DNA of 63,981 nt from Chloroflexota bacterium (lineage in GTDB: Bacteria > Chloroflexota > Limnocylindria > Limnocylindrales > CSP1-4). Each line of letters begins with the position of its first letter. Position 1 is the stretch's first letter. Location of the stretch: positions 1 to 63,981 of the forward strand of contig PMBR01000117.1 of NCBI GenBank assembly GCA_003152995.1. The letters run 5' to 3'. Positions 12,958-53,351 of the stretch are shown here, in pieces. The translations under genes and the position numbers were made by a program. A model generated the notes under the pieces. That model was not told the origin of the DNA and did no database searches. It was given only the letters and a program-made list of their open reading frames with translations.

Positions 12958-12973
12958 CAACCGGCCGGCGTCT

Positions 12974-32600: not shown

Positions 32601-35600
32601 GTGGGCCTCGATTGCCCCGGGGCTCAAGACGCCAGCGTAGACCGCCACTTCGTCGATTGAGCCTGCCCAATGAGCGCTCGCGTTGCCATCCTGGCCAATC
32701 CGCAGGGCGTGGCTCCCATCGGCGAGGAGCGCGGTGCCGACATAGACGCCCGAGCCGATCTGGATGCCATTGACGTAGATCTCGAAGTTGCCGCCGCCGA
32801 CGGTCTCCACGATGTGATACCAGGCTCCGGGGGCGTACTCGAATTCGGCGTCCGCGGCGGAGTTGAGCCATGCGCCCCCAGTCCCGATGGCGCTGTGGAT
32901 CTCGATCGGGTTGGTCGCGGTCGCAGGCGCTAGCTCGAGGGCGAAGCCATACGAGCCGCTCCCCACGATGGCCTGCTTGGCGGTTGCACTCGTGGTCTTG
33001 ACCCAAGCCTCGACCGTGAAGCTGCCTGAGAGCGCGAGGCCGGAGTTGATCGCAATCGAACCCGAGCTGCCGTTGAAGCTCATGGCCTTGTTGGCATCAC
33101 CCACGAGGGCACCAGGCTGCGCGAGGCTTACGCCGCTGCTGCTGATGGTGCCGGCGTGGTTGCCCGAGCTGGAGTCGGCCGCGGTCGAGCCGCTGGGCTC
33201 ACCAAGGCGCCAGTAGCCGGCGAGGTTCGGCCCGGCCGCCACGACCGTGGAATAGACGGGCTCCGGACTCGTATATGGGGTAATCGTGTCGACCACTTCG
33301 TGGAGCGCGTTGTACGTGTAGGTGGTCCGATACAGTCCCGGATTGCCTGCGGCGACCGAGGCGTAGTACTGGTCGGCGCTCTGGCTCCACAGCGTCTCGG
33401 CGCCGGTCAGCGGATCGGCCAGGTTGTCGACCGCGAGCGCGGCGTTCGTGCCGCGGCGGCTCACGACCTGATTGCCTCCGCCGGTGCTCGTGCAGCCGGC
33501 GGTCTGACAGCGGGTTTCGGTGCTGTAGTGGCCGACGCCATCGAAGGCGTAGCTCGCCATCAGATCGCCAGCGTCGACCGCTGGGGTGCACGCACTCGAG
33601 CTGCACGTCAGCGGCTGGTATTCGTTGAGAGTCGTCCCATCGGGGCTCAGGTCGATGTACAGAGCCTTGGAAGCTGCCAACGCGGGGCCGTTCTGCCAGA
33701 GCACGCGCCTGTAGGTATCCGAGCTCGCGGAGTAGGTGTCCACGACGAGCATGTCCTCGTCGGGACTCGCGGACACATCGGTGATCTTGGTCGGGCGATT
33801 GGTCCCGTCGTACGTGACCATCGTGTAGAAGTTGTTGCCGCTCGATCCCGTGTCGCGAGGGTCGCGGATCTTCCAGAGCAAATTGGAGCCTGTGTATTCG
33901 AACTTGAGACATCCCGATGCGGTGCCAACGGCCGCGCACCCCGTGCCGACGTGTTGCGCCGGGATGACGGTCATGAGGTTGCTGCTGGTCAGATCGAATT
34001 CGGTGGCGCGACCGCTGTGGCTCGTCGTCGAGCCGAGTTCTTCGGTGAATGTCACCTTGCCGCTGGCGTAGGCCACGGCGATGTCGCGCTGCGCCGTGCC
34101 GCTCGAAAGCGCCATGCCATCGGAGGGGGCGTGGATCTTGGTCAGGGTGTAGGCGGCCTGGCCCGACTTGGAGGTGTCGTACGTCCAGTCGAAGGTCGTG
34201 GTCTGGCCGTTGCGATCGACGATGCGCTCCAGGAGGCCATCGAGATTGAAGTAGTGCTGGCTGCCGTCGGCGCCGGTGGCGACGAAGTCCTCGGATCCAG
34301 GGGCGATAAGCGGATCGGCACCGGTCTGGCTTGTGAGGTAGTCGTCGTCGAACAGGGCGTACTGACCGTCATACGCGATGAGCTCGTAACCGGTCAGCTG
34401 CACGTCATCGGGGATAGGGCCATTCGAGGGCGCGGCCCCGGGCGAGCTCGAACCAGGATTGTCGTTGTAGAAGCCGAGAACCTGGCGGGCGTCGTCTTCG
34501 AGATCGCGCGTGACCGGAGTCCAACTCACCGGCAGCGAATCGGAGATCTTGATCGGGTTCGCATAGCCCTTGTTCTCGCCGGCGTAGTAGGTGATGGTTT
34601 GGCTGATGTTGGTGCGAACGTCCTTGATCGTGAAGGCTTGGGCGATCGTTGTCCCGCCGACCTTGCGCCAGTACCAGCGGGCGAACGGGTAGACGTACAG
34701 CGGCGTTGTGAGGCCGCTCACCGTCGGACTGGCCGACAGAGGCGTGATGGCAGTCACCTGGAGCGAGTCCGCGCCGATGGCCTTGTCCGAGCTGTTCAAG
34801 CTTGCGTAGCTGCCACTACCGCCGACAAAGGTGGGCAGGCTGTCGTCGAAAGCGACGCTGCTGCCGGGCTCGAGGGCGGCCCCGTCGAACCAGAGGCTTC
34901 CACCCGACACGTAGCCCGTGATCTCGACCGCAAGCACCAGATACGAGTCGTGGTCGGTAGCAGCGCCAAAGAGGCTCTTGTTGGCGTTGACGTCGTTCCA
35001 GACGTTGCGCTCGTACGGCGTCCAGGATGTGGATATGCCACCGATGTCGGTCTGCCAGTCCATGCCAGCGATCGACCAGGACGCCCCGAAGTTGTAACCG
35101 AACCAATTCTGCGTCGAGGTATTGGTGTCGTAGATGTCGAGCGCGATGCCGGCCTTGTTGTATGTGAGCGAGCTTGTCTTGGCGCTGAAGTCCAGCAGCG
35201 GGTATGAATTGAGGGGAACCTGGGGCGTGATGGCGGCGCTCGTCGTGGAGCGGCTGTCGATCTTGGTCGAGAAGGCGCCCGACGATGCGGTCAAGTGGTC
35301 GTACGTCGGCGGCGAGCTCCAGGCGAGCTTGTTGTCGTCGAACAACGTCCAGCGCGTGCGCGCCAGGGCCGAGGGTGCGCTCGAGATCAACTGGCCGTTG
35401 CCGTCGGCGCCCACGAAATAGCTGTTGCCCGACGGGTCCTGGTATGTGTAGGTGCCCGGCGCGGTCGTGCTGACGTTGAGCCGTTCATCGAAGTTGGTCG
35501 ACCAGCCGCATGCTCCCAGGATCTCGGCGCAACTGGAGATCGCGCCCGAGTCGTACTGGTATGACAGGTTCACAGGGTCGAGGTCGTTGAAGCCCACACC

Positions 35601-38387
35601 GCCCGAGCCATCGACATGGAGCGTGCCCGACCACAGGTTCACCGCAGCGGTCGAGCCATCGCCGAGGGTTACCGACTTGACCGGGCCCTGTGCGGTGCCG
35701 CCGCCCGAGACCACGCTCATCGAGAACTCGTCGCGCTCGATCACCGAGCCACCGGTCCAGCGGGTGTTGGCGGGATCGAAGGAGCGTTTGTCGCGGGCCA
35801 TGAAGAGCTTGGGGTTCGCCCAGTCCGAGGCCCAAACGCACTGGACTCCAGCGGTCGAGCAGTCCGCGCCGGTGACGTGGACGAGATCCAGACGCAGGGT
35901 GTACGAGCCCGGCGTTGGGGGCGCGGTGACTGCCAGGGTTACGGCCCCGGTGTGTCCGTCGGTGATCCCGCCGGACGGCAGATCCTGGGTCCCCGGCGCA
36001 GGGCTGGTGACCAGCTTGCCGGTCTGGTCGAACCAGCGATAGCCGGCCTTGTAGTACCAGCCGGCGCTGTCGGGATTGTTCTTGTCGTTGAAGGTGAAGC
36101 CCGAGCCGTTGTTGGTGATCACGATCGGGAGGTTTGTCACCTGGCCCGCGGGCATCGCCGAGGGGGCGTAATTCGGACCCAGTTCGGTCGCGAAGTCGAT
36201 CTGGGTCTGGGGCACGACGTAGTTGATCGTGAGGAGCGGCCGGTTCGTGACCGGCGAGGCCGTACCGAGATCGAAGTCGATCTCGTTCTTGGTCTCGTCG
36301 GTCTGGACGAGCATGAAGCCGAGGTTCGCCATCCAGTCCGCGGCTCGGTTGGTGTACAAGTCGCGAACGATGGCGGTCACATCGAAGGTGTCCGTACAGT
36401 TGTCTGAACCGTGCCCCCCGCATGAGTTCGCCGTGGCCTGCTGCACGGTCGTGCCGCCGCCGTTCACCTGGGCCCAGGTCGACTCGCCGGTCCAAGCATT
36501 GCGCATCCGCTGCGCGGCGAGGGTCATCGTCCCGGTGCCGTAGTTGTACATCTGGTGGATCGTGAGCGAGGCGCTGATAACCTGGCCGCCGTCCTCGGTG
36601 CAGCCCGTGCCGTCGCACAACGAAGCCGAGGGGAAGAACACGAGCGAGCGCATCAAGCCGAAGCCGGTGCCGCGGGCATCCACGCCGACGCGCTCGAAGC
36701 CGCGCCCGGTCGGGTAGTACTGGGGCATGCCGGCCATGAGGTAGGTGTCGAGGTATCCGGTGTTGGTGCAGCCGGTCCCACCGTTCTGGATGCAAATCGA
36801 CGGATCGAGGCTGACCGGGAAGGTGCGGACAGAGGCGGTGAGCCAGCTCGGAGCGATGGCGTAGACGAGCAGAACCTCAGTTGGCCCCAGGCCAGAGACC
36901 GTTGCGGCGGACACGCCGGCGGGATAGGTCGTGTCGCCCGGATGAACGAGGGCAACCGAAATGTCCGCGTTGGTGGAGCCGAGCCCTGTGGCATCGACTA
37001 GACCCGGCGCCCCGATCCGGCCGACCACGTCGGGCCCGCTCTGGCCGGCGGCCGGAACGCCGGCAGGGTCGATCAGAAGGACGCTCTGGCCATCGGTGTC
37101 GAGGGTTGCCTGCAGGGAGCCCGCGTCGAGGGCGTAGGCGTACGTCGTCGCCGCGCTCGCGTTGTTGAGGGTCGCCCCGAATTCGAAGCCGTCTGCCGTG
37201 GGGATGACGCTCAGCGCCCCCGCCACGCCCGTGCCGGCAAAGCTTAGGCCGCCATTCGGACCGACATTGGCGATCGGATTGACCGAGGGTGTGGGCGTAG
37301 CCGAAGGTGTGGGCGTGGGCGCGGGCGTAGGCGCGGCCGAAGGTATGGGCGTGGGCGTAGCCGAAGGTGTGGCCGAGCCCGATGGTGTGGGCGTGGCCGA
37401 AGGCGCGGGCGACTGAGTCGGCAAAGGCGCGGCCGACGCCGTCGGCTGGGCCGAAGTTGCTGGATTACCCGTTGGCGGGGGCGTGGCAGCGGCGGCAGGA
37501 TTGGCCGAGGGTGTGGGTGTGGGTGTGGGTGTGGCCGAAGCCGTTGGCTGAGCTGAAGGTGCTGGATTACCCGTTGGCGTTGGCGTTGGCGTTGGCGTTG
37601 GCATGGCCGTCGGCGTGGGCGTGGCCGAGGGGGTGGGCGTGGCCGTCGGCGTGGGCGAAGGAGATGGACCGACCGTGAGTCCCCCCAATGAGGCCGATCC
37701 GTAGCCGGGCGCACGCAGCTTGATCGAGTAGGGTCCCGACGCAAGTTGGGCTAGGCCCGCAGTCGCGTCGCGGTCGCTGAGCTGAAGCGAGACGTCATTG
37801 GCTTTGGTCCCTAGATCGTAGGCGCCTGCGGTCTTGGCCACGAGACTCGTGTCGATCGGGGCCCAGGCGCCGGTGGTGTCGCGGTAGTTGACTCGCACCG
37901 GGTAGTAGATGAGGGTGATCGTGCCGTTGGTCTCAGCGTAGGCACGGACGTTGGGGCCCCAGCGAGTCATGGCCGGCGTCCGGACCGATGGCGCCTTGTA
38001 TGTCGGCTGGGTCGGCCGCAGCGAGACCCCTCCGTCTGCAGTGGCTCCTGCGCTCCCCGGCTGCTGGGGAACGTCGATCGGGGCGCGTTCGACAGCCGAA
38101 GGGATCGAGTTCGCCCCGGAGTCAGTGGCGGGCAGACTCCCGCCTTGGGCCGGTGGCAGGGCGGTGGTCGCGGCAACGGCGGAGACGGTGATCGAGGTGG
38201 CGACGAGCACCAGGCACGTTGCCGTGCTCAGAGCCCGACCAATGACACCACGACGGAGCAGACGCGAGCGCACGCGTCGAGCGAGGTCGACCCTCACGTT
38301 ACCCCCGGCCCTGCGGCCCTGTCTTTGGCGCGCCAGCGCGCCGTTCTCCACCTCTGCGGCTCGCTGACGGAAGCGAACCGGGTCCAC
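26625..38387 (-). CDS. Giant RHS/YD-repeat polymorphic toxin (3920 aa)
   Basis: N-terminal signal anchor and PT-rich linker. Two LamG-like modules (FTVEAWVK / WTIEAWVN ... IDEVA-Y), two CBM-like modules and dozens of YD repeats (Y-YD--G). RHS core end is YDAGARFYSPGLGTFTQFD...NRYLYGDANPATLIDPDGH, followed by a 288-aa C-terminal domain. Confidence 0.95.
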   Translation of the reverse strand: MDPVRFRQRAAEVENGALARQRQGRRAGGNVRVDLARRVRSRLLRRGVIGRALSTATCLVLVATSITVSAVAATTALPPAQGGSLPATDSGANSIPSAVERAPIDVPQQPGSAGATADGGVSLRPTQPTYKAPSVRTPAMTRWGPNVRAYAETNGTITLIYYPVRVNYRDTTGAWAPIDTSLVAKTAGAYDLGTKANDVSLQLSDRDATAGLAQLASGPYSIKLRAPGYGSASLGGLTVGPSPSPTPTATPTPSATPTPTAMPTPTPTPTPTGNPAPSAQPTASATPTPTPTPSANPAAAATPPPTGNPATSAQPTASAAPLPTQSPAPSATPTPSGSATPSATPTPIPSAAPTPAPTPTPSATPTPSVNPIANVGPNGGLSFAGTGVAGALSVIPTADGFEFGATLNNASAATTYAYALDAGSLQATLDTDGQSVLLIDPAGVPAAGQSGPDVVGRIGAPGLVDATGLGSTNADISVALVHPGDTTYPAGVSAATVSGLGPTEVLLVYAIAPSWLTASVRTFPVSLDPSICIQNGGTGCTNTGYLDTYLMAGMPQYYPTGRGFERVGVDARGTGFGLMRSLVFFPSASLCDGTGCTEDGGQVISASLTIHQMYNYGTGTMTLAAQRMRNAWTGESTWAQVNGGGTTVQQATANSCGGHGSDNCTDTFDVTAIVRDLYTNRAADWMANLGFMLVQTDETKNEIDFDLGTASPVTNRPLLTINYVVPQTQIDFATELGPNYAPSAMPAGQVTNLPIVITNNGSGFTFNDKNNPDSAGWYYKAGYRWFDQTGKLVTSPAPGTQDLPSGGITDGHTGAVTLAVTAPPTPGSYTLRLDLVHVTGADCSTAGVQCVWASDWANPKLFMARDKRSFDPANTRWTGGSVIERDEFSMSVVSGGGTAQGPVKSVTLGDGSTAAVNLWSGTLHVDGSGGVGFNDLDPVNLSYQYDSGAISSCAEILGACGWSTNFDERLNVSTTAPGTYTYQDPSGNSYFVGADGNGQLISSAPSALARTRWTLFDDNKLAWSSPPTYDHLTASSGAFSTKIDSRSTTSAAITPQVPLNSYPLLDFSAKTSSLTYNKAGIALDIYDTNTSTQNWFGYNFGASWSIAGMDWQTDIGGISTSWTPYERNVWNDVNANKSLFGAATDHDSYLVLAVEITGYVSGGSLWFDGAALEPGSSVAFDDSLPTFVGGSGSYASLNSSDKAIGADSLQVTAITPLSASPTVSGLTTPLYVYPFARWYWRKVGGTTIAQAFTIKDVRTNISQTITYYAGENKGYANPIKISDSLPVSWTPVTRDLEDDARQVLGFYNDNPGSSSPGAAPSNGPIPDDVQLTGYELIAYDGQYALFDDDYLTSQTGADPLIAPGSEDFVATGADGSQHYFNLDGLLERIVDRNGQTTTFDWTYDTSKSGQAAYTLTKIHAPSDGMALSSGTAQRDIAVAYASGKVTFTEELGSTTSHSGRATEFDLTSSNLMTVIPAQHVGTGCAAVGTASGCLKFEYTGSNLLWKIRDPRDTGSSGNNFYTMVTYDGTNRPTKITDVSASPDEDMLVVDTYSASSDTYRRVLWQNGPALAASKALYIDLSPDGTTLNEYQPLTCSSSACTPAVDAGDLMASYAFDGVGHYSTETRCQTAGCTSTGGGNQVVSRRGTNAALAVDNLADPLTGAETLWSQSADQYYASVAAGNPGLYRTTYTYNALHEVVDTITPYTSPEPVYSTVVAAGPNLAGYWRLGEPSGSTAADSSSGNHAGTISSSGVSLAQPGALVGDANKAMSFNGSSGSIAINSGLALSGSFTVEAWVKTTSATAKQAIVGSGSYGFALELAPATATNPIEIHSAIGTGGAWLNSAADAEFEYAPGAWYHIVETVGGGNFEIYVNGIQIGSGVYVGTALLADGSHALRIGQDGNASAHWAGSIDEVAVYAGVLSPGAIEAHWAEGAATVLNDVQTLYDDSGNPTSVTDDTYLANEGFEYGTGGNNAGWTLGSSATIYQATSLPDASVHSGTASLKLAANGAAGPATQTVRLVPGQAMRLQFWAHGVSGGHVSYKIEDAAGSTWETPAMATASKAPGGWTQYAIDTRVPVSGDGRIRVSFWNDASAGTGYVDDVDLLTMYSRTTYADGTGATPAGLPTDTFVLNQETPGTTGGIDTRLAYGASSVTPAILPTSRTANYVNGSFDPTKPDEDVISSATYDAWGRTISTTDPDGVGATTTYATNMTDVASTADGVGNVTTYAYDPAGRRTSVTSPLGEMTTTAYDLAGHAVSVTDPNGIQNTSTYTHGLLVSSVANSVSGGGTSGTANLTTNYTYDNLGNQASVISDGGSGLINAETTSGYDLLGNVIQSVVYSDSAHTNSRTTTAYFDVSGSIARPKPSGSRGPIAPTGGRLCPGSTTLYCNSVSVLDMAGRPTMTYDAYGTPSQHVFDLDGHEVRTVGNYSTGTYDPSHPDRDISSDNQFDLNGNLVGVVDVLGHTTSTKRDALGRATAVVRPDNSWTRTDYTPGGRTAATSQPGSSTQGDDDVTWTATLYDAAGRAYSTLANWDRSGAAGMSLFSFEGGVDGWTGSGSGYFIGAPAGAISSDQDTAGSAYQTTAPDNGRGRLRVATSTSGSYSGAWVDLSAQDGGQTFLAGHTYKIHADIDGWSGYTLTSFFGVDASGGDYHSCGSLSTNGHWQTIDCTWTPSADRASNVHFAVRKDASGWINFYLDDVVVWDATATVTTQSNIPTSETIYDADSHPIENVTPPGVPGVDEPMVTASAYDPDGRLVATSVDATDAYSTSIINTASLLDYWPLDERGGTAAEDKKGSNDGTYTGGVALGVAGAIDEARTAASFDGASGNVGFAGCDLTTGDWTIEAWVNPASSADGYKSIVAGATGSYGLILTGSSGNLYLAARITGVANAGSANVTIPTNTWTHVGATFSAAGGTVTYYVNGAAAGTGSFGSYTPTGGAKTNTIASSASGSGFFPGSIDEVALYNAALSGGTMSSHFAAGRETAPDSNLVTANVYDALGRKTDLVDPTGINSHYVYDRLGRVTATTSNYVDGVWSSANPDRDVSSTYAYDALGEMTGYCSAQNRGDAGTLCDPTSGSATTAWHYSYDAAGHLIYQKPPTVTPLPTGVTALGGVQLSSNAWVYDAGNRLTQVCTIPSWASTCANATRYTATTYDAVGRATLVKTYQGAPGSGTSPLSWTSTYQGDGYRTRLVFDGRYASPVEGTTTLTINFSPDLLDRPIEISDGSGGVLTSYTYNADGTAGTRTDPTGTATFGYDFAGRPASVSETSLTSLTPRWSYRLDGLLGSRTWTGSNALFTYTYDAAKRPVGLAISGTGVASVSLSQTYDRDGNVKSEGRTFAGITGDSGNNTASFTYDGLARVVSDVLGSRSISYTYDRDSNRTSMTDGSPTTYVYDAADQLLSQTVSGTTHYFAYDSGGNMIADAEPVAGGSTTTYTYDIADRLLGITAPNPTASSTFTLDPLGRTATRTTATSPTATTDTYSYLGTSETVCQIATSGGSNSTTVALLGSDGSRLATKVGGSNTLSFLVPDLHGNVAAAATWNFGTITDAFRYDAYGRLIAATTSSLPTPWRYQGRMLVSATGAADLYDAGARFYSPGLGTFTQFDSVGGSAQNPISMNRYLYGDANPATLIDPDGHTGICEYIVTDASCWETGTGKDTGNSPKSPATGGAPAPTVPPVTDGGCQYHDCTPTVPTLNDTHRQFLTMCLSTGSDLDECLRRWKKVVRGEIAGDSSSDGPPEIVSTAVGNIQVPADIAKDALWLARFKKLFEGFMARGGGWTEASARSAAIGMVRQQFTGGNGAALEGISDKAGAAALLADTGLTMATCDWSDELNCANQSAKTAVKDYAGLKVGALVGTACVLGLATGPGEALICGGGAVIAGVVTSNVVGSTWDSVACNFDSDCPKLDDYYEAIRLLSVRDSGNP
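37275..37667. repeat. Low-complexity Pro/Thr/Ser/Ala-coding repeats in the RHS N-terminus
   Basis: The DNA shows reiterated 'ggcgtgggcgtggccga'-type units, giving about 131 aa of PTPTPSATPTP-type sequence. Confidence 0.8.
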
Positions 38388-43431: not shown

Positions 43432-44601
43432 TCAGTCCGACTCAGGCCCGTCCGCGCTCAGCGGAGCGCCGGAGGCCTCGAGCTCGTCCTCGTCGTCTGG
43501 CGCGGGCGCTGGCTTCTCCGGATAAATCTCGCGGTACAACCCAGCTCCCATGAGTTGGTCGATGGCCCCCACGAACCAGGCCACCGCGTCCTCCGAGTTG
43601 TCGACCAGGATTGCACGCTTCGTCGTCTTGAGGACGGGCCAGCCTTCCACTGGGCGTCCCCAATCAGCGAGCGAGTCGTGACGCTTGGCCCAGTCTCGGA
43701 CGACGCCCCGGACATCGGCGTACTTGGGATCGGCCTCGAGCCAGACGGTCATGTTCGTCTCGCCATCTATAGGCTCGTAACCGTAGGTGACCCAGACGCG
43801 GCGACCGTTGCCAAAGAAGAGCGTCACTCGCCCGTGGGCGGCGAACTGGTTGCGGCACGTTCGCTCAACCCAGTGATTGGGCCAGCGGAACTCGGGCGGA
43901 AACCCCAACTCGCGATGCTCCGGAGCGTCGAGGGCTTCGTTCACCTGCCGGAGCACCGCGAGGGCCTTGCGGAATAAGTGGTAAGCATCTTCGAGCGAGA
44001 TCGCCTCCCGGGCTGAGACCGGCAGCGTCCATTCCTCGGTCATCTTGATCTCCTGCAGGTATTCACGAAGATCGAGCCAGTGCTCACCTGGCTTGTGAGT
44101 GTCCCTGACGGCGTCCGCGATGGCTTGCCAGCGGAGCTGGTGAGGCTTGGCTTCACTGTCCATCGGCTCGGGCGCGAGCAGAACCAGGTCGCGCCGGCTG
44201 TCTGGATGGGCTTCGATGTAGTCTCGGTAGTGTGCCAGCTGATTGCCGCTTAAGCCGGCGTTCACCTTGTTCTCGAACCAGATCTCTCTCCGGGTTTCGC
44301 TGTGGCCCCGTCCGTCTGGTCGGGCGATCGTGAGATGGAGCACCAGATCGATGAAGCCGTAGGAGGGAGCCGCCGCCGAGGCGGGCATCGGCCACTGGGT
44401 GACCGCGGTCACTCGGGCGTGATGGACCTCGTCCTCGTCGATGATCCCCGCCCGGCCGAGGGCAAGAAGAATGGGCTGCGGATTGCGGCGGATCGCCTCG
44501 GCCAGGGCCTCAGTGGTGAAGTTCTCCTGACTTTCGACAAGTCTCTCGTCGCCAGCTCCCGACACCTTGGCGTACCGGAACAGGTGCTCCAGGGTGGACA
44601 T
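43432..44601 (-). CDS. PD-(D/E)xK nuclease-superfamily protein
   Basis: FIDLVLHL ... EIWFENKV gives a D...E-x-K arrangement. 389 aa. Confidence 0.55.
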   Translation of the reverse strand: MSTLEHLFRYAKVSGAGDERLVESQENFTTEALAEAIRRNPQPILLALGRAGIIDEDEVHHARVTAVTQWPMPASAAAPSYGFIDLVLHLTIARPDGRGHSETRREIWFENKVNAGLSGNQLAHYRDYIEAHPDSRRDLVLLAPEPMDSEAKPHQLRWQAIADAVRDTHKPGEHWLDLREYLQEIKMTEEWTLPVSAREAISLEDAYHLFRKALAVLRQVNEALDAPEHRELGFPPEFRWPNHWVERTCRNQFAAHGRVTLFFGNGRRVWVTYGYEPIDGETNMTVWLEADPKYADVRGVVRDWAKRHDSLADWGRPVEGWPVLKTTKRAILVDNSEDAVAWFVGAIDQLMGAGLYREIYPEKPAPAPDDEDELEASGAPLSADGPESD

Positions 44602-44822: not shown

Positions 44823-45659
44823 TTATGCGGTCGCGGCAGGCGTCGCACCAGCGCGGTCTCGAGCGTTCACTCGGAGGACCGCAACTGCAGCGGGTAGCAA
44901 AGTGACGACCCCTACTCCGCCCACGACCACGGCAACAGCGAGGGGAACCTCATCGCCGGCGAGCGCCGCAAAAGCAAACCCTCCGACGATGCCCGCTGAG
45001 GTGAGGAAGAGCCAGATGAGCATCGGGAGCGCGAACGCTCCGGCGACCGGGACACCTCGGAGGAGGCCAACGCCGGCCACGACGCACAGCGGCAGGAAGA
45101 GTCCGAGATCGAGGGCATAGACGGGGTTCGTTGGGAGGCCGGCCTTCGCGAGGTCCACGGGCGGAACGCCACTCGTCGTGGCGGTCGCGATCTGCCCCAG
45201 CCAGAGCATCCCAAAGAGGGCCGCAACGAGGAGGAGCACGGCGACCGATGTGCGGCGCGGGAGCCGCCCGATGAGGACGCGGCCGGCGCCAGCGAGGTCC
45301 GCGGAGGACAGGCTGAGCACGAGGCTCCAGACCGCGAGTCCTAGGATCGCGATATAGACCGCGGCGAGCGGGTTCATCACCACGGAGAACGCGAAAATCG
45401 CGTAGTTGTAGACGAGGTAGAGGAGGCCAGCAGTCGCCGCAAGGCGGCCCACGAGCGAGCCATGACGGGCAGTCGCCAGACCCACGACTAGGATCGGCAC
45501 CGCCAGGAACAGCGTCGCAAGGTCAATCCCGCGCGCCTGTTGGGCCCAGAAGGGGACGTCACGGTAAAGACCGCCGATACCAAGTCCGGCCGCCGCGGCG
45601 ACGGCGGCAAGCAGGGCCGCGATCCAGGCCAGCGGGTCGGCGATGGCGAGTCGGTTCAT
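44823..45659 (-). CDS. Polytopic membrane protein
   Basis: 278 aa made up almost entirely of TM helices. Confidence 0.6.
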   Translation of the reverse strand: MNRLAIADPLAWIAALLAAVAAAAGLGIGGLYRDVPFWAQQARGIDLATLFLAVPILVVGLATARHGSLVGRLAATAGLLYLVYNYAIFAFSVVMNPLAAVYIAILGLAVWSLVLSLSSADLAGAGRVLIGRLPRRTSVAVLLLVAALFGMLWLGQIATATTSGVPPVDLAKAGLPTNPVYALDLGLFLPLCVVAGVGLLRGVPVAGAFALPMLIWLFLTSAGIVGGFAFAALAGDEVPLAVAVVVGGVGVVTLLPAAVAVLRVNARDRAGATPAATA

Positions 45660-45882
45660 TGAGACCTCCTGAGAACGCGTGCCTGAAGCTCGTTGTCGCC
45701 AAGGGCGGACGCCCCTCCAGGGTGGGGTTCCGCCGGGCGAAGAGGCAGAGTCGATTGGCCCTCAGCCGGCCCGCTTCGTCAGGGCCTACTGGTCCGGCTG
45801 CCACGATGCCGCGATAGCGTTGCTTTCTCCGGCCAGCTGAGTGACTCATGTGGGCGACCACCTTGTACCCGAGGCGCCCACG

Positions 45883-46818
45883 ATGACCGCTCAACCACTC
45901 CCGGCCCTGACCAGCGGAGACCCCTCCGCCTGGGACCAGGCCCTCTACGCCTTCTTGATAGAGAAGGGCAACCGCTCGGGATCGAAGCGGACGGTCGAGT
46001 CATACAGCCGGATGCTCTGGCCCTTCTTCGCCGAGCGCAGCTTGACGCCTGATCGAGTCAAGCCTGGCGAGGTCCTCGCCTGGGTCCATGGCATCGGCCG
46101 CTCCGGTCGGACACCGTCCTCAACCACGGTCGGTGCGCGGATCGCGTGCCTGTCCTCCTTCTACCGCTTCCTGATCAGGATGGGCCTGGTCGTCAGCAAC
46201 CCCTGCGACGCCGTCGAGCGACCCAGAGCCATTCAGTCCGTTGCCCGGGGATACAGCGCCGACGAGGTGCGACGGCTCCTTGCGGTGGTCCCCGACACCA
46301 TCGCCGGGCGGCGAGACCGAGCCATCCTCCTCACACTCGTTCTGACGGGACGGCGTCGGACCGAGGTGATCAGCCTGAAGGCCGGCGACCTCAGCATCGA
46401 AGGCGAGACGGTCTTCTATGCCTACCGAGGCAAGGGCGGTAAGAGAGGTCGGCGGGAACTCCCTCGCCCGGCCTACGAGGCGATATGCGCGACGCTTGCC
46501 GATGCCGGCAAGGAGCTGGCCTCGATGACTCCGGCCGAGTCGCTCTGGCAAGCCGCCGCACGAGTGGAGGGAGTCACGAGCGGCACGTTCTACGCCAGGT
46601 TCCGCCGATATCTGCAGCTTGCCGGCATGGCCCCGACCGGCATACACGTCTTGCGGCATACGGCGGCAAAGCTGCGGCGAGATGCCGGGGAGTCGATCGA
46701 GTCAGTCAGCCAGTTCTTGGACCACAGTTCGCTCGCGGTCACGAGCGTCTACCTGCGCCGACTGGAGGGTCAGGAGGACCTGACGTGGCGCGAGGTTGCG
46801 GAGGCAATCGGGGTCTGA
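45883..46818 (+). CDS. Tyrosine recombinase/integrase, copy B
   Basis: Same catalytic motifs as copy A. DNA homology to copy A spans about 45813..46818. Confidence 0.9.
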   Translation: MTAQPLPALTSGDPSAWDQALYAFLIEKGNRSGSKRTVESYSRMLWPFFAERSLTPDRVKPGEVLAWVHGIGRSGRTPSSTTVGARIACLSSFYRFLIRMGLVVSNPCDAVERPRAIQSVARGYSADEVRRLLAVVPDTIAGRRDRAILLTLVLTGRRRTEVISLKAGDLSIEGETVFYAYRGKGGKRGRRELPRPAYEAICATLADAGKELASMTPAESLWQAAARVEGVTSGTFYARFRRYLQLAGMAPTGIHVLRHTAAKLRRDAGESIESVSQFLDHSSLAVTSVYLRRLEGQEDLTWREVAEAIGV

Positions 46819-46890
46819 GGCTTGATAAGAATCAGTCGGCCCCGGCGCCTTGCGCCAGGAACTCGCCCAGAATCGCCCACCCAACCAGCA

Positions 46891-47691
46891 TCACAGGCGT
46901 GCCCACCGCTCCGAGACTCCACCGATGATCTGCGGGGGTATGCCGAGTGCTGCGACGAAGTTCGGCTCGGGCACGATGGGCACTCCGTAGTCTCGCGCCT
47001 TCTGCAGAGTGGTCGTCACTTCGTTCGAATCGGCGACGATCAAGACCTGCGTCTTCTTGGTAAGCCGTGGGAGCACTTCGCAACCGGCCCATCGAGCGAG
47101 CATGACCTGAGCGTTTCGGTCGAGTGGCGCGCCGTAGAGAGTGGTCGAGCCCTGTCCGCTAAAGACGACGGACTTTCCGCCCCAAGTCGAGTCCGCTGGT
47201 GTCCGATTGTCGGTCGCCAGCTCCACGATGCACTCGCCCGGCGTCCCTAGGTGAAGAACGACACCCACGCCTCCACGTTCAGACTGGAGCGCGGCATCAC
47301 ATGCCACCGCGGGCGGAGTAGCCCCTGATGTCGCCGCAAGCCAGCGAAAGACCGGTTGATAGCTTGCCGCGTCGGTCCGAGACAGGTAGCCCGCCAACGA
47401 CCAGGTGCCGCCCGCCCACAGGACCACAGCAATCGCGTTGCGGTCGTACTGGTTGGCGGGCTCAGCAACGAGCAGTGCCTTGTAGTAGCCCGGCGGCGGC
47501 CCGGGCATCCCAGGCGGGAGATCGTTTGGCCCGGGCGGCCGCGCAAGCCTCACCGACGCTTGTCGGTAGTACTCGCCGACGACCGGCAGCATCGCGTCGT
47601 CGCGCAAACGGGTGAAACACGTCACGTTGAGGCGGGCGGAGTTAACTCCGCTACCACCGAGAAAGCGCCGTAGGAAACTCATGCCTCGCAC
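46891..47691 (-). CDS. HIRAN-domain / BRCT-domain protein (variable-slot cargo of module B)
   Basis: HIRAN-like VVGEYYRQ...LLVAEPANQYDRNAIAVV...GYLSR. C-terminal BRCT-like GKSVVFSG...TKKTQVLIVAD...KARDYGVPIV. Confidence 0.7.
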   Translation of the reverse strand: MRGMSFLRRFLGGSGVNSARLNVTCFTRLRDDAMLPVVGEYYRQASVRLARPPGPNDLPPGMPGPPPGYYKALLVAEPANQYDRNAIAVVLWAGGTWSLAGYLSRTDAASYQPVFRWLAATSGATPPAVACDAALQSERGGVGVVLHLGTPGECIVELATDNRTPADSTWGGKSVVFSGQGSTTLYGAPLDRNAQVMLARWAGCEVLPRLTKKTQVLIVADSNEVTTTLQKARDYGVPIVPEPNFVAALGIPPQIIGGVSERWARL

Positions 47692-47848
47692 CCTCTAGCA
47701 CCGTGAGCACCCTCAATAACCTACGCGCTTTTGGTCAGTGACGGACGACGAGTACGCACGGACTGACCCGTAGCCCCGGCGAAGAGCCCGCGGTCCGAGG
47801 GAGCGCCAGATAAGCGCCCGATAAGCGGCGACTGCTAGGGTCGGCTCG

Positions 47849-47930
47849 GGTCGGGCTCCGCTCTGTGACCGGGCCGATGCCGGACGACGGTGAGCGAGCC
47901 AGCGAGGGTGATGCCGCAGGCGTCCCGACC
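47849..47930. repeat. 82-bp conserved repeat, copy 3 (homology to copy 1 extends back to about 47800)
   Basis: Same orientation as copies 1 and 2. Lies 158 to 239 nt upstream of the HIRAN-BRCT start codon on the minus strand. Confidence 0.85.
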
Positions 47931-47935
47931 TAGCC

Positions 47936-48727
47936 TTGCCGCGCGACCCCACGGGACGTGGGCCGGGGCGAGACAATGCAGCCGTGACAGGGTCGAGAGA
48001 TCGCGATAGCCATGGAAGCGCTCGCGGGCCGCAGGACCAGCGCCGGCTCCATGACTGGCTGGCGTGGGACGAGTCGGTCAGGCGAGGGCGACGCATTCTC
48101 TCCTTCGATCCGGACTGGACGCCCCGACCAGGCGGCCCTCAGTCCCCCGAGTACATCCGCTGGCGACAGGCCGTCGAACTTCGTCGCCTGCTCGCGGAGG
48201 CCAACCGCGCCCTGATCGAGCTGCACCTGCCGGCCCTGTTCCGCGACTACTGGATCGCCTGCTTCCTAGCGCCCTACGAGCGCGATGGTCTCGAGGTCAT
48301 CTGCGATCCGCAGCCAACCGGGGACGTGACCACCGAGCGCGTCTACCCGCCGCCCTCGGAGTCGTGGTTCGACGCGGGCATCGACTACTCCACCGCTCCG
48401 GCCACACTGCTGATAGAGGGACCAGCCGCGCTCGCGAGCAGCCTCGTCCTTCGTGCCGCGGTTCGTCGGGCGCTGGAGAGCAAGCGACGGTCGGGCTTTG
48501 CGGCCCAGCACCCGCTCATGCGGACGCGGCAGATCGGAGCCGTGGCCGAGGATCGCACCGCCGCGAGGGGCCGGCCGAACCCTGCCAAGGAGGTCGCCAT
48601 CCGCCGTGCGCGAGCATGGGCAGCAGGCGGAGAGAAGCCCGAGTTCATTGCGCTTCGCCTCACCGAGCGCGGGTATCAAGTGTCCGCGCGAACCGTGCGG
48701 CGGTGGCTGGACGTGCCGCCAGAATAG
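47936..48727 (+). CDS. Hypothetical protein with C-terminal resolvase-type HTH
   Basis: PEFIALRLTERGYQVSARTVRRWL. The N-terminal limit is uncertain. Confidence 0.5.
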   Translation: MPRDPTGRGPGRDNAAVTGSRDRDSHGSARGPQDQRRLHDWLAWDESVRRGRRILSFDPDWTPRPGGPQSPEYIRWRQAVELRRLLAEANRALIELHLPALFRDYWIACFLAPYERDGLEVICDPQPTGDVTTERVYPPPSESWFDAGIDYSTAPATLLIEGPAALASSLVLRAAVRRALESKRRSGFAAQHPLMRTRQIGAVAEDRTAARGRPNPAKEVAIRRARAWAAGGEKPEFIALRLTERGYQVSARTVRRWLDVPPE

Positions 48728-48811
48728 GGAAATTGACACGCCGTCTGGGCAGCACGAGGGGCCGAAGCCGAAGGCATAGGCGACGATCAGGCCCCCGGAT
48801 AATCTCGCCTC

Positions 48812-49027
48812 ATGGCCGCACGAGACACCGCGACACCAACAGCAGCCGGCGCTACTCGACATGAGACGCCGGCGCCCGGACTCGCCCTGCCTCGTCGTCG
48901 ACTTGCACGACCCCTCGACATCGAGCATGTGTATGTCCCTGACCGCGACGTCATGGCGGCAGCCCTCCGGATCGTCCTGGGACTTCCCCGCCGCTTGCCC
49001 GACGGTCTGCATGGGAGACCTCGATGA
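48812..49027 (+). CDS. Small conserved ORF translationally coupled to LSR-B
   Basis: ATGA overlap with the LSR-B start. C-terminus RRLARPLDIEHVYVPDRDVMAAALRIVLGLPRRLPD is homologous to 14375..14557. Confidence 0.6.
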   Translation: MAARDTATPTAAGATRHETPAPGLALPRRRLARPLDIEHVYVPDRDVMAAALRIVLGLPRRLPDGLHGRPR

Positions 49028-50778
49028 GCGCGATGACAACGGCGGTGGCGGTCCGGCGGGTGGCGATCTACATCCGAGTCAGCAGCGAGGACCAGGCGGA
49101 GCGCGGCAGCATCAAGACCCAGGAGGACGAGATCCGGCGTCGCCTGGAGCGCGAACCCGGAGTGGTCATCGTCGGCGTCTACTCCGATGAGGGCGTGTCG
49201 GGCACGGTGCCCCTGGCCGAACGTCCGGCTGGTGCCAGGCTCCTGGCCGACGCCCGGGCGGGACTGATCGACGAGGTCTGGGTCTACAAGCTCGATCGCC
49301 TGGGCCGCGACCTCATTGGCCTCGCGATCGCCCGCCGCAGCCTCGTGGAGCTTGGCGTCCGCCTGGTCAGCGCCCATGAGGGTGAGCCCGACGAGTTCAT
49401 GTTCGACATCCAGTCCGCGGTCGCCGCCAACGAACGCCGGGTCTTCCTGCGGCGCTCGGCCGAGGGGATGAGCCGGGCGGCGCGAGAAGGTCGCTATACC
49501 GGCGGGATCGTGCCGTTCGGATACCGCGTCGCCGGCGAGAAGCAGAAGGCGCGCCTGGAGCCCGACACGGCCCCGCTGTGGGGCGATCTCTCGGCGGTTG
49601 ATCTCGTGCGCCGCATCTACAACTCGCTCGGTCTGGAGCGCCGGAGTTGCCGCTCCATCGCAGCGGAGTTCAACGCCCTGGGCATCCCGACCCACTACTC
49701 ACGCGATCATCGCGAGGTCAAACGGGGAGAACGCAAGGAGCGCACCCAGGGCCTCTGGCGGGCCGGGCGTATCCGGAACCTGGTCGTGAACCCGATCTAC
49801 AAGGGTCTCCTCCAGTACGGCCGACGGAGTGACAAGGCTCGCGAGCCCATCCCGGCTCAGATCGAGCCCCTCGTGTCTGAGGACCTTTGGCAGGCTGCTC
49901 AGCAGACCCTGGCTGCCAACCGGACCATCGCCAAGAACACCCACCGGCGCTACCTGCTCAAAGGCGTCATCCGGTGCGGCCTCGACGGGTTGACATACGT
50001 TGGCTCGCAGGGCCGCCAGGGTGTCGGCTGGTATCGCTGCGGTGGTCAGCTGGTCGAGCGCGGTCCCCTCCCCGGCCGGTGCTGGGGTCAGTCGATCCGG
50101 ACCGACGTCATCGAACCGCCGATCTGGGACGACATCGAAGCCTGGCTTCGCAACCCTGGCGACATCCTCCAAACGCTCGAAGCGGAGATCGAGCGGGTCC
50201 CGGACGTGCCCGACGAGTCGATCGCCCTTCGCCGTGCCCTCGAAGAGGTCGAGCAACGCCGGCGACGGCTCGTCTCCCTAGCCGAGGAGGGCCTTCAGAC
50301 GACCGCTGAGCTTCGTCCCGAGTTCGCTCGCCTGGCGGGCCAGCGCGAGGAGATCGAGGCACGCCTGACTCGTCTGGCGCCCCGGCCGCAGGAGCCTGTG
50401 CCGGCGGAGACCATCGACCTCCTCTCCGATGTGCGTACTCGCCTGGAATGCGGACTCACCGACGAGCAGCGCCAAGAGATCGTCCGGCTGCTCGTCTCGG
50501 TCGTCGTCCACACCGACACGGGCGCGGACGGCAAGAAGCAGGCCAGAGCGGTGGTGGAGTACCGGTTCCCCAATGGCGTAGATGGTGTAGTCGATTTCTC
50601 CACGGGCATGGATTCATCGCGGCGACGAGTTGGAAACGTGACGGGAAGACCGCCGCTCGGCCCACCCGGGCGATCGCGACCTGGCCGTCCTCCAGCGGCT
50701 GTCGCAGCGCCTCAAGAGCACCGCGGTCGAACTCGGGCAACTCATCGAGGAAGAGGATTCCGTCGTGCGCCAAAGTGA
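49024..50778 (+). CDS. Large serine recombinase (LSR-B) with a chimeric C-terminal tail
   Basis: YIRVSSEDQ catalytic motif. About 60-65% identity to LSR-A over the stretches aligned by eye. From about 50610 the reading frame is antisense comM sequence (about 56 aa). Confidence 0.85.
50597..50618. other. Island/chromosome junction (attR-like hybrid site)
   Basis: tctccacgg-gcat matches the left arm and spacer of the LSR-A palindrome. The following ggattcatc is comM coding sequence (antisense of ATGAATCC). Confidence 0.6.
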
Positions 50779-51715
50779 CCTCGCCCGGGGAAAGGCGAGG
50801 GCCGCCGCCGACCATGGCCGCATACGAGATGGTGTGGTGAGGCGATCGGAATGGGCGCCGTCTGATCAAACCTCGTATCGGGACCGTGCCGGCAACAGAG
50901 GCGATGATCGTCGCCACCCGCGATTCCTCGTCGTCGAGAGGGGGCAGCAATCCCGGAATCGTTCTGGCCAGAAGAGTCTTGCCCGATCCGGGCGGGCCGA
51001 TCATCAGCAGACAGTGACCGCCGGCCAGCGCCACCTCCAGGCCCCGTCGAGCCTCCAGTTGGCCTCGTACCTCCGCCAGGTCAGGCGCCGCGTCGCCGTC
51101 CTCCGACGCCTGCCCCACCGCCGAGCAATGAGCGTCTCCGTCATCGGCCTCGAGGCGCACCGCGTCCGATAGTTCGACGCGTGGCGGCATCGTTCGCGTT
51201 CGCCCGTGGCGGCTGGCGCGCAGCAGCGCCGCCGCCTCTGCCAGTGTGGCCGCCGGCACGACCTCGACGCCATCCGCGAGCGACGCCTCAGCAGCGCCAT
51301 CCGCAGGCACGATCACGCGCCTGACGCGCCGCCTTCCCAGCGCCATGACCATCGGCAGCAGGCCCGGCACGGGGCGCAGGTCCCCGCCCAGCGACAACTC
51401 GCCGAGCACCGCCCACCTGCCCGTAGCCTTGACCTGCTCCGAACCGACCATGATGCCGAGGGCTATCGCCAGATCGAGCGACGCGCCACCTTTGCGCAGG
51501 TCGGCGGGCGCCAGGTTCACCGTAATGCGCCGTGGTGGGTAGTCGTAGCCGCTGTTCCGGATCGCCCCCCGGACTCGCTCCCGCGCTTCCTGCAAGGCAG
51601 TGTCCGCGAGCCCAACGATCGTGAAGCCCGGCAGACCTGGAGCGACATCGACTTCGACGCGAACGATGCGGCCATCGAGGCCGTGAACGGTGGCAGATAG
51701 CAGTGACGCAAGCAC
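50601..51715 (-). pseudogene. comM: comM/yifB (Mg-chelatase-like ATPase), 5' fragment truncated by island insertion
   Basis: N-terminus [15 protein letters not shown]...[22 protein letters not shown], Walker [18 protein letters not shown], ending ...[11 protein letters not shown], where family members continue CG. The last 47 aa of the track ORF are unrelated island sequence. Confidence 0.85.
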
Positions 51716-52064
51716 ACCGGCGACGCTACGCCTGGGGAATCAACTCCGGCTTATCTGAGCCTTACGGAAGCGGCGCCCCGGCGCCCAGACCGCAACGAGG
51801 CTCGCCGTCTCGGTGGTCTGCGAAGGCGCATGGAAGGCACGATCGCGGTCGCCTACAACCTGCGGGTCCGGACTCGATCGATGGCATCCGCCGACTCCTG
51901 GAGACCAACCTGACGACATCGCGCCGCGGGCAGCCACCCGTCCGAACCGGCCAGCGCGACGATCCTCCCACCCGATTGCATGGGCCTTCTACCGGAACAA
52001 TGATCCGCCCGGCGGTGCGGCCACATGCGTTTGGCGAAACTCGCGCCGTTGGAGGATTCCTCGA

Positions 52065-53351
52065 ATGGCTGCCGAACCGCTCACCGAACCCATCGTTCTA
52101 GCCGATGCCGCTCCCGAAGCTCCACTAGCTGAGCCGTCCCGCTCGCGGCGCTCGATCCTCGGGGCCGGGCTCGCAGGCCTGGCCGGTCTGGTTCTCGGCT
52201 CGCTCGGGAGACCGCAAGCGGCTGACGCAGCGGCGGGTGGCTCGCTCGTGATGGGTGCGGCCAACAGCGCCGGCACGACGAACACGAGCCTCGCGACCAA
52301 CTCGACCGGCACAGCCATGTACGTCACCCAGGCCGGCACCGGCACCGCCGTTCGAGGCATTGCCAACAACGGCATCGCCGGCTTCTTCACCAGCTCGAAC
52401 GGCTCGGGTGTCAGCGGTGTCGTGGCGAACAACACCAAGTACGGCGTGTACGGCGCTAACGACGCGTTGACCAACGGTGGCGGCGCCGCCATCCGGGCCA
52501 GCGGTGAGCAGAACCACGGTCTCGTGGCCACCACGGCCAGTACCTTCGCCTATGCCATCAAGGCGACCAACACGAACCCGGGCACCGGCTATTCGTCGGG
52601 CGCTGGCATCCGTGCCCTCGCGGGAAACGGCACCGACGCCGACATCGATGACCTGGCGGTGCCTCACGGCGCCGGGGAGTTCTGCGGCGGAAATGGCATC
52701 GTGGCCGTGTCCCATGGAGGAGCGGGGAACGGCGTCTCGGCCTACAGCGTCTCAGGAGCTGGCGTCTACGGTTCCTGCGGCACGGGGTGGGCCATCTACG
52801 GTTCCAGCGGCTCGGGGTACGGCGTCTACAGCAACGGCAACGCGGGGGTCTCCGGCAACCTCGACGTCATCGGCACGCTGTCCAAGGGCGGCGGCTCGTT
52901 CAAGATCGACCATCCCCTCGATCCCGCGAACAAGTTCCTCTATCACAGCTTCGTCGAATCGCCGGACATGCTCAACGTGTACAGCGGCACGGTCACGCTC
53001 GATGCCAGGGGCGAGGCGACTGTCAGTCTGCCGGCCTGGTTCGACGCCCTCAATCGAGACGCTCGGATCCAGCTCACAGCGGTCGGCGAGTTCAGCCCGC
53101 TGTACGTCAAGTCGGAGATGCACGGGGGCTCCTTCTCGATGGCTGGTGGCAAGGCTAGCCAGCGGGTGTACTGGCAACTCACCGGCATCCGACAGGACGC
53201 TTGGGCCAACGCCCACCGCATCCCGGTGGAAGAGGAGAAGCCGGCAGCCGAGCGCGGGCTCTACCTCCATCCGACCGAGCACGGCCAGGCTGCCGCCAAG
53301 GGTATCGACGCCGTCCGCAACGCCGCGATGAAGCCGCACGCGGGTAAGTAG
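52065..53351 (+). CDS. Tat-exported Gly/Ala/Asn-rich beta-helix-like protein with a conserved C-terminal domain
   Basis: ATG 52065 after GGAGGA. Twin-arginine motif SRSRRSILGAGLAGLAG. Repeats GV-G-A-N. C-terminus GGGSFKIDHPLDPANKFLYHSFVESPDMLNVYSG. Confidence 0.6.
   Translation: MAAEPLTEPIVLADAAPEAPLAEPSRSRRSILGAGLAGLAGLVLGSLGRPQAADAAAGGSLVMGAANSAGTTNTSLATNSTGTAMYVTQAGTGTAVRGIANNGIAGFFTSSNGSGVSGVVANNTKYGVYGANDALTNGGGAAIRASGEQNHGLVATTASTFAYAIKATNTNPGTGYSSGAGIRALAGNGTDADIDDLAVPHGAGEFCGGNGIVAVSHGGAGNGVSAYSVSGAGVYGSCGTGWAIYGSSGSGYGVYSNGNAGVSGNLDVIGTLSKGGGSFKIDHPLDPANKFLYHSFVESPDMLNVYSGTVTLDARGEATVSLPAWFDALNRDARIQLTAVGEFSPLYVKSEMHGGSFSMAGGKASQRVYWQLTGIRQDAWANAHRIPVEEEKPAAERGLYLHPTEHGQAAAKGIDAVRNAAMKPHAGK

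Follow-up and report, generated by a model that had tools for sequence, protein, structure and literature searches.

What might a bacterial protein do that joins a HIRAN domain to a BRCT domain, has no catalytic domain, and is encoded beside a recombinase gene in an integrated element? The question is raised by a gene here called HB (for HIRAN-BRCT, used for both the gene and its protein), which lies on a stretch of 63,981 nucleotides (nt) from a Chloroflexota bacterium of the Limnocylindrales lineage CSP1-4 (NCBI GenBank assembly GCA_003152995.1, contig PMBR01000117.1, positions 1 to 63,981 of the forward strand); this whole stretch is referred to as the window. The domains of HB are familiar, but their combination and its setting are new. 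HB is carried as an accessory gene in a hypervariable slot of the module that ends an element integrated in comM, and we tentatively propose, as a possibility that we place a little short of even, that it serves host or element defence by reading or capping 3' ends, nicks or gaps in DNA, without catalysis of its own.

A mechanical search for open reading frames (ORFs) had placed the gene at 46891-47691 on the minus strand, with 266 codons and a GTG start at 47691. In a collection of 5.8 billion proteins, all of the homologues (116/116) open with M-[S/G]-F-L-[R/K]-R, that is MSFLRR or MGFLRR, and therefore the ATG at 47682 is taken as the true start, judged from this comparison of sequences, giving a protein of 263 amino acids (aa) plus stop. 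The ribosome-binding site AGAGGG lies 8 nt before this ATG, and the database entry P0001, which is identical to HB, is also 263 aa long. HB is a real gene and not a chance ORF, because the 116 homologues are full-length, with ~50-72% identity, and 15 columns of their alignment are invariant. It is present in one copy in the window, and its GC content at third codon positions (GC3) is 0.73, compared with 0.79 +/- 0.03 for ORFs of at least 200 aa, about two standard deviations below the mean. A scan of 45600-49100 for sigma-70 promoters and terminators found nothing. The MSFLRRLxG peptide at the N-terminus is possibly a partner-binding motif.

The sequence-only reading of this DNA had proposed an N-terminal HIRAN-like domain together with a C-terminal BRCT domain like that of LigA, with no helicase, nuclease or ligase domain in between. 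Profile searches and structure prediction support all three points, with the refinement that the BRCT domain is much closer to that of DEDDh-exonuclease-BRCT proteins than to LigA. In the window protein, Pfam HIRAN (PF08797) matches aa 74-115 (E 3e-4, 21.0 bits, gathering cut-off 24.7) and Pfam BRCT (PF00533) matches aa 196-240 (E 9e-4, 19.9 bits, gathering cut-off 21.3). When 86 members of the family were scanned singly, HIRAN was matched by 78 (best 5.7e-8) and BRCT by 37 (best 2.1e-6), and several homologues carry precomputed PF08797 matches. The NCBIfam matches of HB were BRCT tails only, those of a DEDDh exonuclease model and of LigA. From sequence alone, the family profile also reached the BRCT domain of Escherichia coli LigA (E 8e-4) and lp_0118 (E 1.5e-3).

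An AlphaFold2 model built from 86 sequences had a mean predicted local distance difference test score (pLDDT) of 90.3 and a predicted template modelling score (pTM) of 0.87, with disorder limited to residues 1-14. It consists of a barrel (aa 18-157), a linker helix (aa 148-157) and an alpha/beta domain (aa 165-250), and the two domains are predicted to pack as one rigid unit. Compared with the PDB by Foldseek, the N-terminal half matched the HIRAN domain of HLTF (4xzg, 6kcs, 4s0n) and lp_0118 (3k2y) with a probability of 0.97-0.99 and template modelling (TM) scores, normalised to the target, of 0.42-0.51. The C-terminal half matched the BRCT domains of RFC1 (7u19, 2ebu, 2k7f), LigA (9a6z_B), XRCC1 and others with a probability of 1.0. 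Neither the Pfam scan nor the model contained a helicase, nuclease, ligase or other catalytic domain; the secondary-structure map leaves one linker helix between the two domains, and there is no space for a third. Among the matches listed, no PDB or BFVD entry spans both domains, and phage proteins match one or the other. By profile, predicted fold and motifs, HB is thus assigned to both the HIRAN and the BRCT superfamilies.

The residues by which the two domains would contact DNA are conserved. HMMER aligned l-v-p-e-P-t-N-q-Y-D-r-N-A-i of the HB family with L-Q-R-D-P-N-N-P-Y-D-K-N-A-I of HLTF, so that N77-x-Y79-D80-x-N82-A83 of HB lines up with N91-P-Y93-D94-K-N-A. In the family N77 is invariant, Y79 is mostly Y and sometimes H or F, and D80 is conserved in at least 90% of members; Y39 of HB was paired with Y72 of HLTF by pattern only. 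The 3'-OH at the primer end is recognised by D94 of HLTF, whose Y72 and Y93 hold the final two bases between them (PMC5773155; PMC4666394); a double alanine mutant of N90 and N91 was made to probe the role of HIRAN in DNA binding (PMC4666394). The BRCT domain has an invariant R189 and conserved F-[S/T]-G176 and T208-K209-K210, which line up with VLTG...R...SKKT of LigA and VFTG...R...SSKT of Rfc1. The phosphate pocket of BRCT domains is formed by S/T-G in the beta1-alpha1 loop and T/S-x-K at alpha2 (PMC10386641), and in RFC the BRCT domain helps to build a second site that grips the 5' duplex end at gaps (PMC9293004). Because both pockets are conserved, HB would be expected to bind a 3'-OH end and a 5'-phosphate junction.

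The setting of the gene was the other part of the question. HB lies in a recombination module, module B, in the order tyrosine recombinase B, HB, repeat, an ORF with a weak helix-turn-helix (HTH) match and large serine recombinase B (Table 1). A paralogous module, module A, is present in the same window. Both recombinases and the repeat are conserved between the two modules and both intervening slots differ: the place of HB is taken in module A by an unrelated gene, and the slot-2 ORF of module B is without a counterpart there. The distance from the repeat to the slot-1 gene downstream of it is ~110-130 nt in both modules. The conservation of the repeat, whose core of ~60 nt is near-invariant, is far above that of the adjacent recombinase genes. 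The sequence is present in metagenomes of peat, permafrost and wetland. There, HB and the unique flanks have the same depth (~20x in run X1), and the depth is 2-5 times higher for the tyrosine recombinase and for the repeat (~5 times the flanks for the latter). Assembly contigs break at the edges of the tyrosine recombinase and of the repeat, and at least three different sequences continue from each repeat edge. The comparison of the modules, the depth in metagenomes and the alternative flanks therefore all support the placement of HB in an exchangeable slot beside the integrase and behind a conserved repeat, as the sequence-only reading had described it. Two further joints in the read layout (46515>51104 and 49687>44656) were disregarded, being found in single contigs with 21-nt anchors.

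The repeat itself could be a recombination site, or a promoter or operator of the cargo slot. Rfam gave no family over the whole window, the repeat included, and folding of both strands was no better than that of shuffled sequence (z between -1.2 and +0.7), therefore a structured RNA or an attC site is not supported. The possibility of an integron cassette was also rejected, as the score of the tyrosine recombinase for integron integrases is 43 bits, with the cut-off at 265, and the folding of the repeat did not point to an attC site. Two GCTTATC motifs are located between the repeat and HB.

The right end of the element was found in comM, which is cut exactly after codon 371 (...AAMNPCP) and abuts serine recombinase B; RNA contigs of two runs break at 50601. 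The left, element-side half of the attR junction matches the palindrome of module A, and the core CACGGGCA is common to the attR junction and to the empty attB in the uninterrupted comM of a related genome (locus L052, 3001-4590), where the synteny is NfeD, Band_7, response regulator, comM and dprA. The 3' part of comM was not found in the window, either by motif search or by tblastn with an intact 529-aa homologue, so the left end of the element is undefined; the more than 50 kb to the left of the junction may be one element or two in tandem. Many database entries for comM of Limnocylindrales end at ~368-400 aa, which suggests that the gene is a recurrent integration target. HB is regarded as cargo of this element because of the variable slot, the cut in comM with its shared att core, the atypical GC3 and the pattern of depth in metagenomes.

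The close family of HB consists of the 116 proteins of ~260-270 aa, mostly from Chloroflexota of soil and peat. The named sources are metagenome-assembled genomes of Limnocylindrales and 'Chloroflexia', with single entries from Propionicimonas and Binatia. When 1.84 billion cluster representatives were searched exhaustively with the family profile, 1747 were hit; 46 clusters were at E < 1e-30, ~30 of them full length, and beyond these there were many proteins that match HB in one domain only. The distribution is patchy, with eight matches in a pattern scan of 185,579 species genomes. No match to HB was found by tblastn in 50,697 phage and 72,556 plasmid records, and IMG/VR contained no homologue of HB, one distant HIRAN-only match and no copy of the repeat core. 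The top BRCT-only matches are proteins of ~410-430 aa with an N-terminal RNase_T/DEDDh exonuclease, with many representatives at 1e-13 to 1e-20. The BRCT domain of HB also matched the PADLOC candidate PDC-S48 (E 1.7e-10), at profile positions 325-405 of 411 only. HB and these DEDDh-exonuclease-BRCT proteins have in common an insert, x-x-I-x-G-x-P-[LI]-x-R, that follows the TG motif and precedes the conserved Arg, and on these sequence comparisons the BRCT domain of HB is assigned nearer to the PDC-S48 subfamily than to LigA.

A protein identical to HB is known from 22 contigs, and the arrangement is the same in all ten of the places listed. Elsewhere synteny is not conserved, and the neighbours differ even between closely related members of the family. 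The close homologues were not tied to housekeeping contexts, which would have spoken against the sequence-only reading; they are in varied neighbourhoods, many of which are defence islands or recombinase modules (about 12-13 of about 20 informative contexts). The HB family thus moves among defence islands and recombinase modules. Of these loci, L019 has NERD, MmeI_N, an SLFN-g3 helicase, SLATT, QueC, OGG, ThsB-TIR, TIR_2 and HEPN/NTase as neighbours of HB, and L021 has NERD, a helicase remnant, a Ppl-like ATPase and PIN/HTH. In L023, HB begins 49 nt after a type I HsdR gene and is followed by DUF6308, Mrr_cat, UDG and HTH/M78. The neighbours are a helicase fragment and PARIS AriAB in L032, a fusion of an N6_N4 methyltransferase with Mrr in L007, AbiGi in L031 and a peptidase M78 in L004. 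In L042 (41% identity to HB), they are a tyrosine recombinase 68% identical to that of the window, AAA_25, a serine recombinase and an Eco57I-like methyltransferase. L041 and L044 have a gene of unknown kind in common, and L041 also has a serine recombinase. Two tandem HB-like genes of 272 aa are present in L048 (837-1655 and 1959-2777), the upstream copy of which matches HIRAN; this locus represents a distant branch with a local duplication.

In one clade HB is accompanied by a possible partner. In L035, a complete protein of 639 aa (8085-10004) is encoded upstream of HB and overlaps its start by 4 nt, so that the two genes are coupled in translation. This protein has an SLFN-g3/DUF2075 helicase domain (Pfam E 4e-86) and matches PDC-S41, Nhi and AbiO in PADLOC, and its N-terminus appears to be PD-(D/E)xK-like, as judged from the sequence. 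Full-length, frameshifted copies of the helicase are upstream of HB in L034 (3273-5190) and L019 (6718-8641), and 3' remnants lie directly upstream of it in L007, L021, L032, L046 and L028. This gives eight loci with the helicase or its remnant directly upstream, and the 4-nt overlap was found in two of them, L035 and L021. The truncated copies have a common left breakpoint 440-457 nt before the ATG of HB, with different neighbours farther out. The association is restricted to one part of the tree, and the window contains no homologue of this helicase. These arrangements suggest that the clade had an ancestral helicase-HB operon, from which HB with a short remnant later persisted or moved alone. 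The coupling of the two genes, followed by HB outlasting the helicase, argues for a functional link with this defence-type nuclease-helicase and also for an activity of HB that is independent of it.

How could a protein of this kind act? By analogy with HLTF, the HIRAN pocket would capture a free 3'-OH DNA end, and by analogy with RFC1 and LigA, the phosphate pocket of the BRCT domain would hold a 5'-phosphate or the duplex junction, so that the substrates of HB would be nicks, gaps or ends in foreign DNA or in DNA under replication. A fixed arrangement of the two domains is suggested by the high pTM, and HB may therefore read a nick or gap from both of its sides, or read a recessed end. As HB is unable to cut, join or unwind DNA, it must act either by occupancy or by handing the end to a partner. 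By occupancy, it could block the access of LigA, a polymerase or an exonuclease. With a partner, it could present the end to a nuclease-helicase such as the Nhi-like protein, as an in-trans parallel to the positioning of the motor by the HIRAN domain of HLTF. The target of such a defence would be phages and other mobile DNA. A more specific form of this proposal, which we hold to be unlikely taken by itself, is an autonomous, enzyme-free nick or gap clamp, in which HIRAN would sequester the 3'-OH and the rigidly attached BRCT domain would hold the 5'-phosphate of the same discontinuity. Such a clamp could keep phage or plasmid DNA from being sealed or extended, or could mark it for nucleases.

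Several points weigh against the proposed reader or cap in defence. Both domains of the window protein score under the Pfam gathering cut-offs. Metatranscriptome contigs cover HB, and their depth parallels the depth of the DNA, so that this coverage is no proof of expression. The searches of phages, plasmids and viral contigs yielded no carrier from which to tell whether HB serves defence or counter-defence. The tally of neighbourhoods is descriptive, with about 20 informative loci and no formal background control. Three loci (L022, L025 and L026) are uninformative, with no recognisable defence or mobile genes, and in two of a distant branch (L045 and L049, ~41% identity) the neighbour of the gene is a P-type ATPase, and no mobile feature is annotated in the vicinity. 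A nick-capping protein would also be expected to encounter the Okazaki nicks of the host, and no immunity or regulatory partner is evident for HB.

The main alternative to defence is counter-defence, to which we give a low probability. HB would then be a decoy or protector that caps the 3' ends or nicks of the excised or replicating DNA of its own element. It would use the same BRCT targeting as the DEDDh-exonuclease-BRCT proteins or Nhi-like nuclease-helicases of the host, with a non-catalytic binder of 3' ends replacing the nuclease, and so would compete with them. The BRCT subfamily and insert that HB shares with the RNase_T-BRCT proteins of ~420 aa would fit such a decoy, and so would the AAA_25 primase/helicase-like protein encoded by the element. 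HB is moreover intact where the adjacent Nhi-like helicase has decayed, as would be the case for an orphan neutraliser. However, many homologues have bona fide defence genes around them, in defence islands of the chromosome, none was found in the searches of phages, plasmids and viral contigs, and PDC-S48 is itself a candidate system. Another, quite unlikely explanation is that HB is the end-sensing subunit of a two-gene system with the Nhi/AbiO-like PD-(D/E)xK and SLFN-g3 helicase, analogous to the HIRAN domain and motor of HLTF, the HB of the window being an orphan that needs a partner elsewhere or is being lost. The 4-nt overlap in L035 and L021, the full-length helicases in L035, L034 and L019 and the five upstream remnants with their common breakpoint (~440-457 nt) would be explained in this way. 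It is more difficult to reconcile with the lack of a helicase homologue in the window, with an association confined to part of the tree and with an intact HB in many contexts that have no helicase, which argues for autonomous activity.

A role of HB as a helper in the life cycle of the element, holding ends or nicks during circle replication or the reactions of the recombinases, would account for its position inside the recombination module and for the distant homologues (41-43% identity) in L042, L041 and L044, which are again near tyrosine or serine recombinases and AAA_25. We consider this very doubtful, as module A does without HB, its slot being filled by an unrelated gene, so that HB is not a core function, and most homologues are not adjacent to recombinases. 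Finally, HB could be an ordinary host factor for DNA repair or damage tolerance, a nick or gap binder that sits on the island by chance. Both of its domains are classical modules of repair proteins and some of the loci have no mobile or defence genes, yet the absence of conserved synteny, the patchy distribution, the atypical GC3 and the variable slot make this highly improbable.

The proposed reader or cap can be compared with systems that are already known. The HIRAN domains of HLTF/Rad5 (PF08797; PDB 4XZF, 4S0N, 6KCS) and lp_0118 (3K2Y) have the same barrel, and HB keeps the N-x-Y-D-x-N-A-I motif of HLTF; it differs by a Pro-rich loop insertion of 20 residues and by the fusion to BRCT. A fork remodeller of the HLTF/Rad5 type can be ruled out, since HB has no SNF2 motor or RING. 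With LigA and RFC1 (PDB 2OWO, 1L7B, 2K7F, 7U19), HB shares a single BRCT domain with S/T-G, R and T-K-K, and it lacks the adenylation, OB, Zn and HhH domains as well as the clamp-loader AAA+ module. It is not a LigA, as only the last 70-85 positions of the LigA models match, with 13.5 bits against a cut-off of 444. Several homologues (P0002, P0008, P0087, P0093 and P0102) are called 'NAD-dependent DNA ligase' by JGI, a mis-annotation due to the BRCT domain alone.

The PDC-S48 proteins (~410-430 aa), with a DEDDh 3'-5' exonuclease and a C-terminal BRCT, resemble HB in that both architectures combine this type of BRCT with a domain engaging 3' ends. HB has the non-catalytic HIRAN where PDC-S48 has the exonuclease and a helical linker, and it does not belong to PDC-S48, because it matches the BRCT part alone. 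The Nhi/AbiO nuclease-helicases (SLFN-g3/DUF2075, PF09848) are neighbours and probable operon partners in one clade, and HB itself is dissimilar to them; a two-gene unit of this kind is not present in the window, where no such helicase is found upstream on the same strand. Defence hotspots are located beside the integrases of prophages, satellites and integrative and conjugative elements, with conserved flanks and interchangeable single-gene cargo. The slot of HB differs from these in being between the tyrosine and serine recombinases of an element in comM of Limnocylindrales, and its sister cargo in module A is of unknown fold. That sister cargo, the slot-1 gene of module A, has ~35 homologues, an AlphaFold model with pLDDT 87 and the family motifs GDxLQNLRSSLDYLVWEL, FPIC, QPY and NINKHRRILL. 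It gave no Pfam, PADLOC or PHROG match and no fold match in the PDB, and is uninformative on whether the slot is a defence hotspot; it may represent a new fold.

In the HipN/HipL systems, prokaryotic HIRAN domains occur in a toxin-antitoxin or defence-island context, as part of HipS-HIRAN antitoxins or at the C-terminus of HipA-like kinases; they were proposed, without experiments, to be sensors of phage DNA ends (PMC8262856), and clusters of HIRAN-HipA are found next to diDNases (PMC11706625). Unlike these, HB has no HipS, kinase or HipA neighbour and carries a BRCT domain; membership was ruled out, as no HipS or HipA matches from Pfam or NCBIfam were found in HB or its neighbours. The HIRAN domains of prokaryotes have been termed uncharacterised (PMC11090510). 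Our literature search found no description of a prokaryotic HIRAN-BRCT protein, nothing relevant on PDC-S48 and no paper tying BRCT domains to anti-phage systems.

HB is therefore a compact, easily cloned test case for the sensing or masking of DNA termini in conflicts between bacteria and mobile DNA, and it points to a wider BRCT subfamily, the DEDDh-exonuclease-BRCT proteins of PDC-S48, that may target the same DNA structure. If the nick clamp proves true, it would be the first function for a prokaryotic HIRAN domain, the first BRCT-based immune or counter-immune factor, and an in-trans bacterial counterpart of the end-recognition logic of HLTF. If HB binds DNA ends and there is no phenotype, the outcome would be a minor correction of annotation, from 'NAD-dependent DNA ligase' to 'HIRAN-BRCT protein'.

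Table 1. Positions of HB, its domains, the two recombination modules and the comM junction in the window.
Feature	Position	Strand	Remarks
HIRAN-BRCT gene HB	46891-47682	-	263 aa plus stop; start shared with homologues
HIRAN domain, aa 18-157	47212-47631	-	Predicted six-stranded barrel and two helices; Pro-rich loop aa 45-66
BRCT domain, aa 165-250	46933-47190	-	LigA/RFC1 class
N-terminal peptide M-[SG]-F-L-[RK]-R-[LF]-x-G	47653-47682	-	Conserved; disordered in model
C-terminal tail ending in G-R-W-A-R	46894-46932	-	Conserved motif; W260 invariant
Tyrosine recombinase B (Xer-like)	45841-46818	+	Convergent with HB; protein 92% identical to tyrosine recombinase A
Conserved repeat, ~135 nt	47795-47930	.	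113 nt upstream of HB start; bounds variable slot
Slot-2 ORF of module B	47936-48727	+	263 aa (247 aa as called elsewhere); weak C-terminal HTH match
Large serine recombinase B	49024-50778	+	Resolvase, Recombinase and Zn ribbon; 3' end crosses att junction into antisense comM
Paralogous module A	10858-16212	+	35 kb left of module B
Tyrosine recombinase A	10899-11876		Module A
Slot-1 gene of module A	11899 to ~12693	-	Unrelated to HB
Repeat copies of module A	12825-12957 and 13263-13352		87-92% identical to module B repeat
Slot-2 ORF of module A	13409-14329	-	Differs from slot-2 ORF of module B
Serine recombinase A	14554-16212		Module A; ~66% nt identity to serine recombinase B
comM/yifB, 5' part	50600-51715	-	Codons 1-371 of ~529
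attR junction TCTCCACGGGCATGG	50598-50612	.	comM sequence begins here
Perfect attP-like palindrome CTTCACGG-GCAT-CCGTGAAG	16122-16141	.	Inside 3' end of serine recombinase A

Other features were observed in the window. A gene 2.3 kb from HB (43432-44601, minus strand) encodes a protein of 389 aa with weak matches to PD-(D/E)XK_4 (E 0.016) and to PDC-S26 of PADLOC (E 7e-5), and it is syntenic in all ten of the listed contigs with an identical HB. Two genes directly follow serine recombinase A (16209-18802, plus strand). The first is AAA_25/primase-helicase-like and matches DNA primase/helicase in PHROG, and the second we take, by eye, to be a ParB-like DNA methyltransferase. Both genes are of kinds typical of integrative elements, where they serve replication or anti-restriction.

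A giant ORF of 3920 aa (26625-38387, minus strand) is followed by small ORFs at 25165-25920 and 26024-26644, both on the minus strand, one of which is presumably Hint-like, judging by eye. Together they could form a polymorphic-toxin-like locus inside the putative element. A stretch of low GC content (0.58) is located at 39-41 kb, after the giant ORF. On the other side of the junction, a protein of 512 aa rich in Gly, Ser, Thr and Ala is encoded between comM and the response-regulator gene (51813-53351, plus strand). This gene is absent from the empty-site locus L052, has a depth of 4-10 times the flanks in metagenomes with many variant positions, and may have been inserted separately, as a variable or mobile unit. 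A tandem array of ~150-nt units, with at least five copies at 78-91% identity, occupies the left end of the window (1-781).

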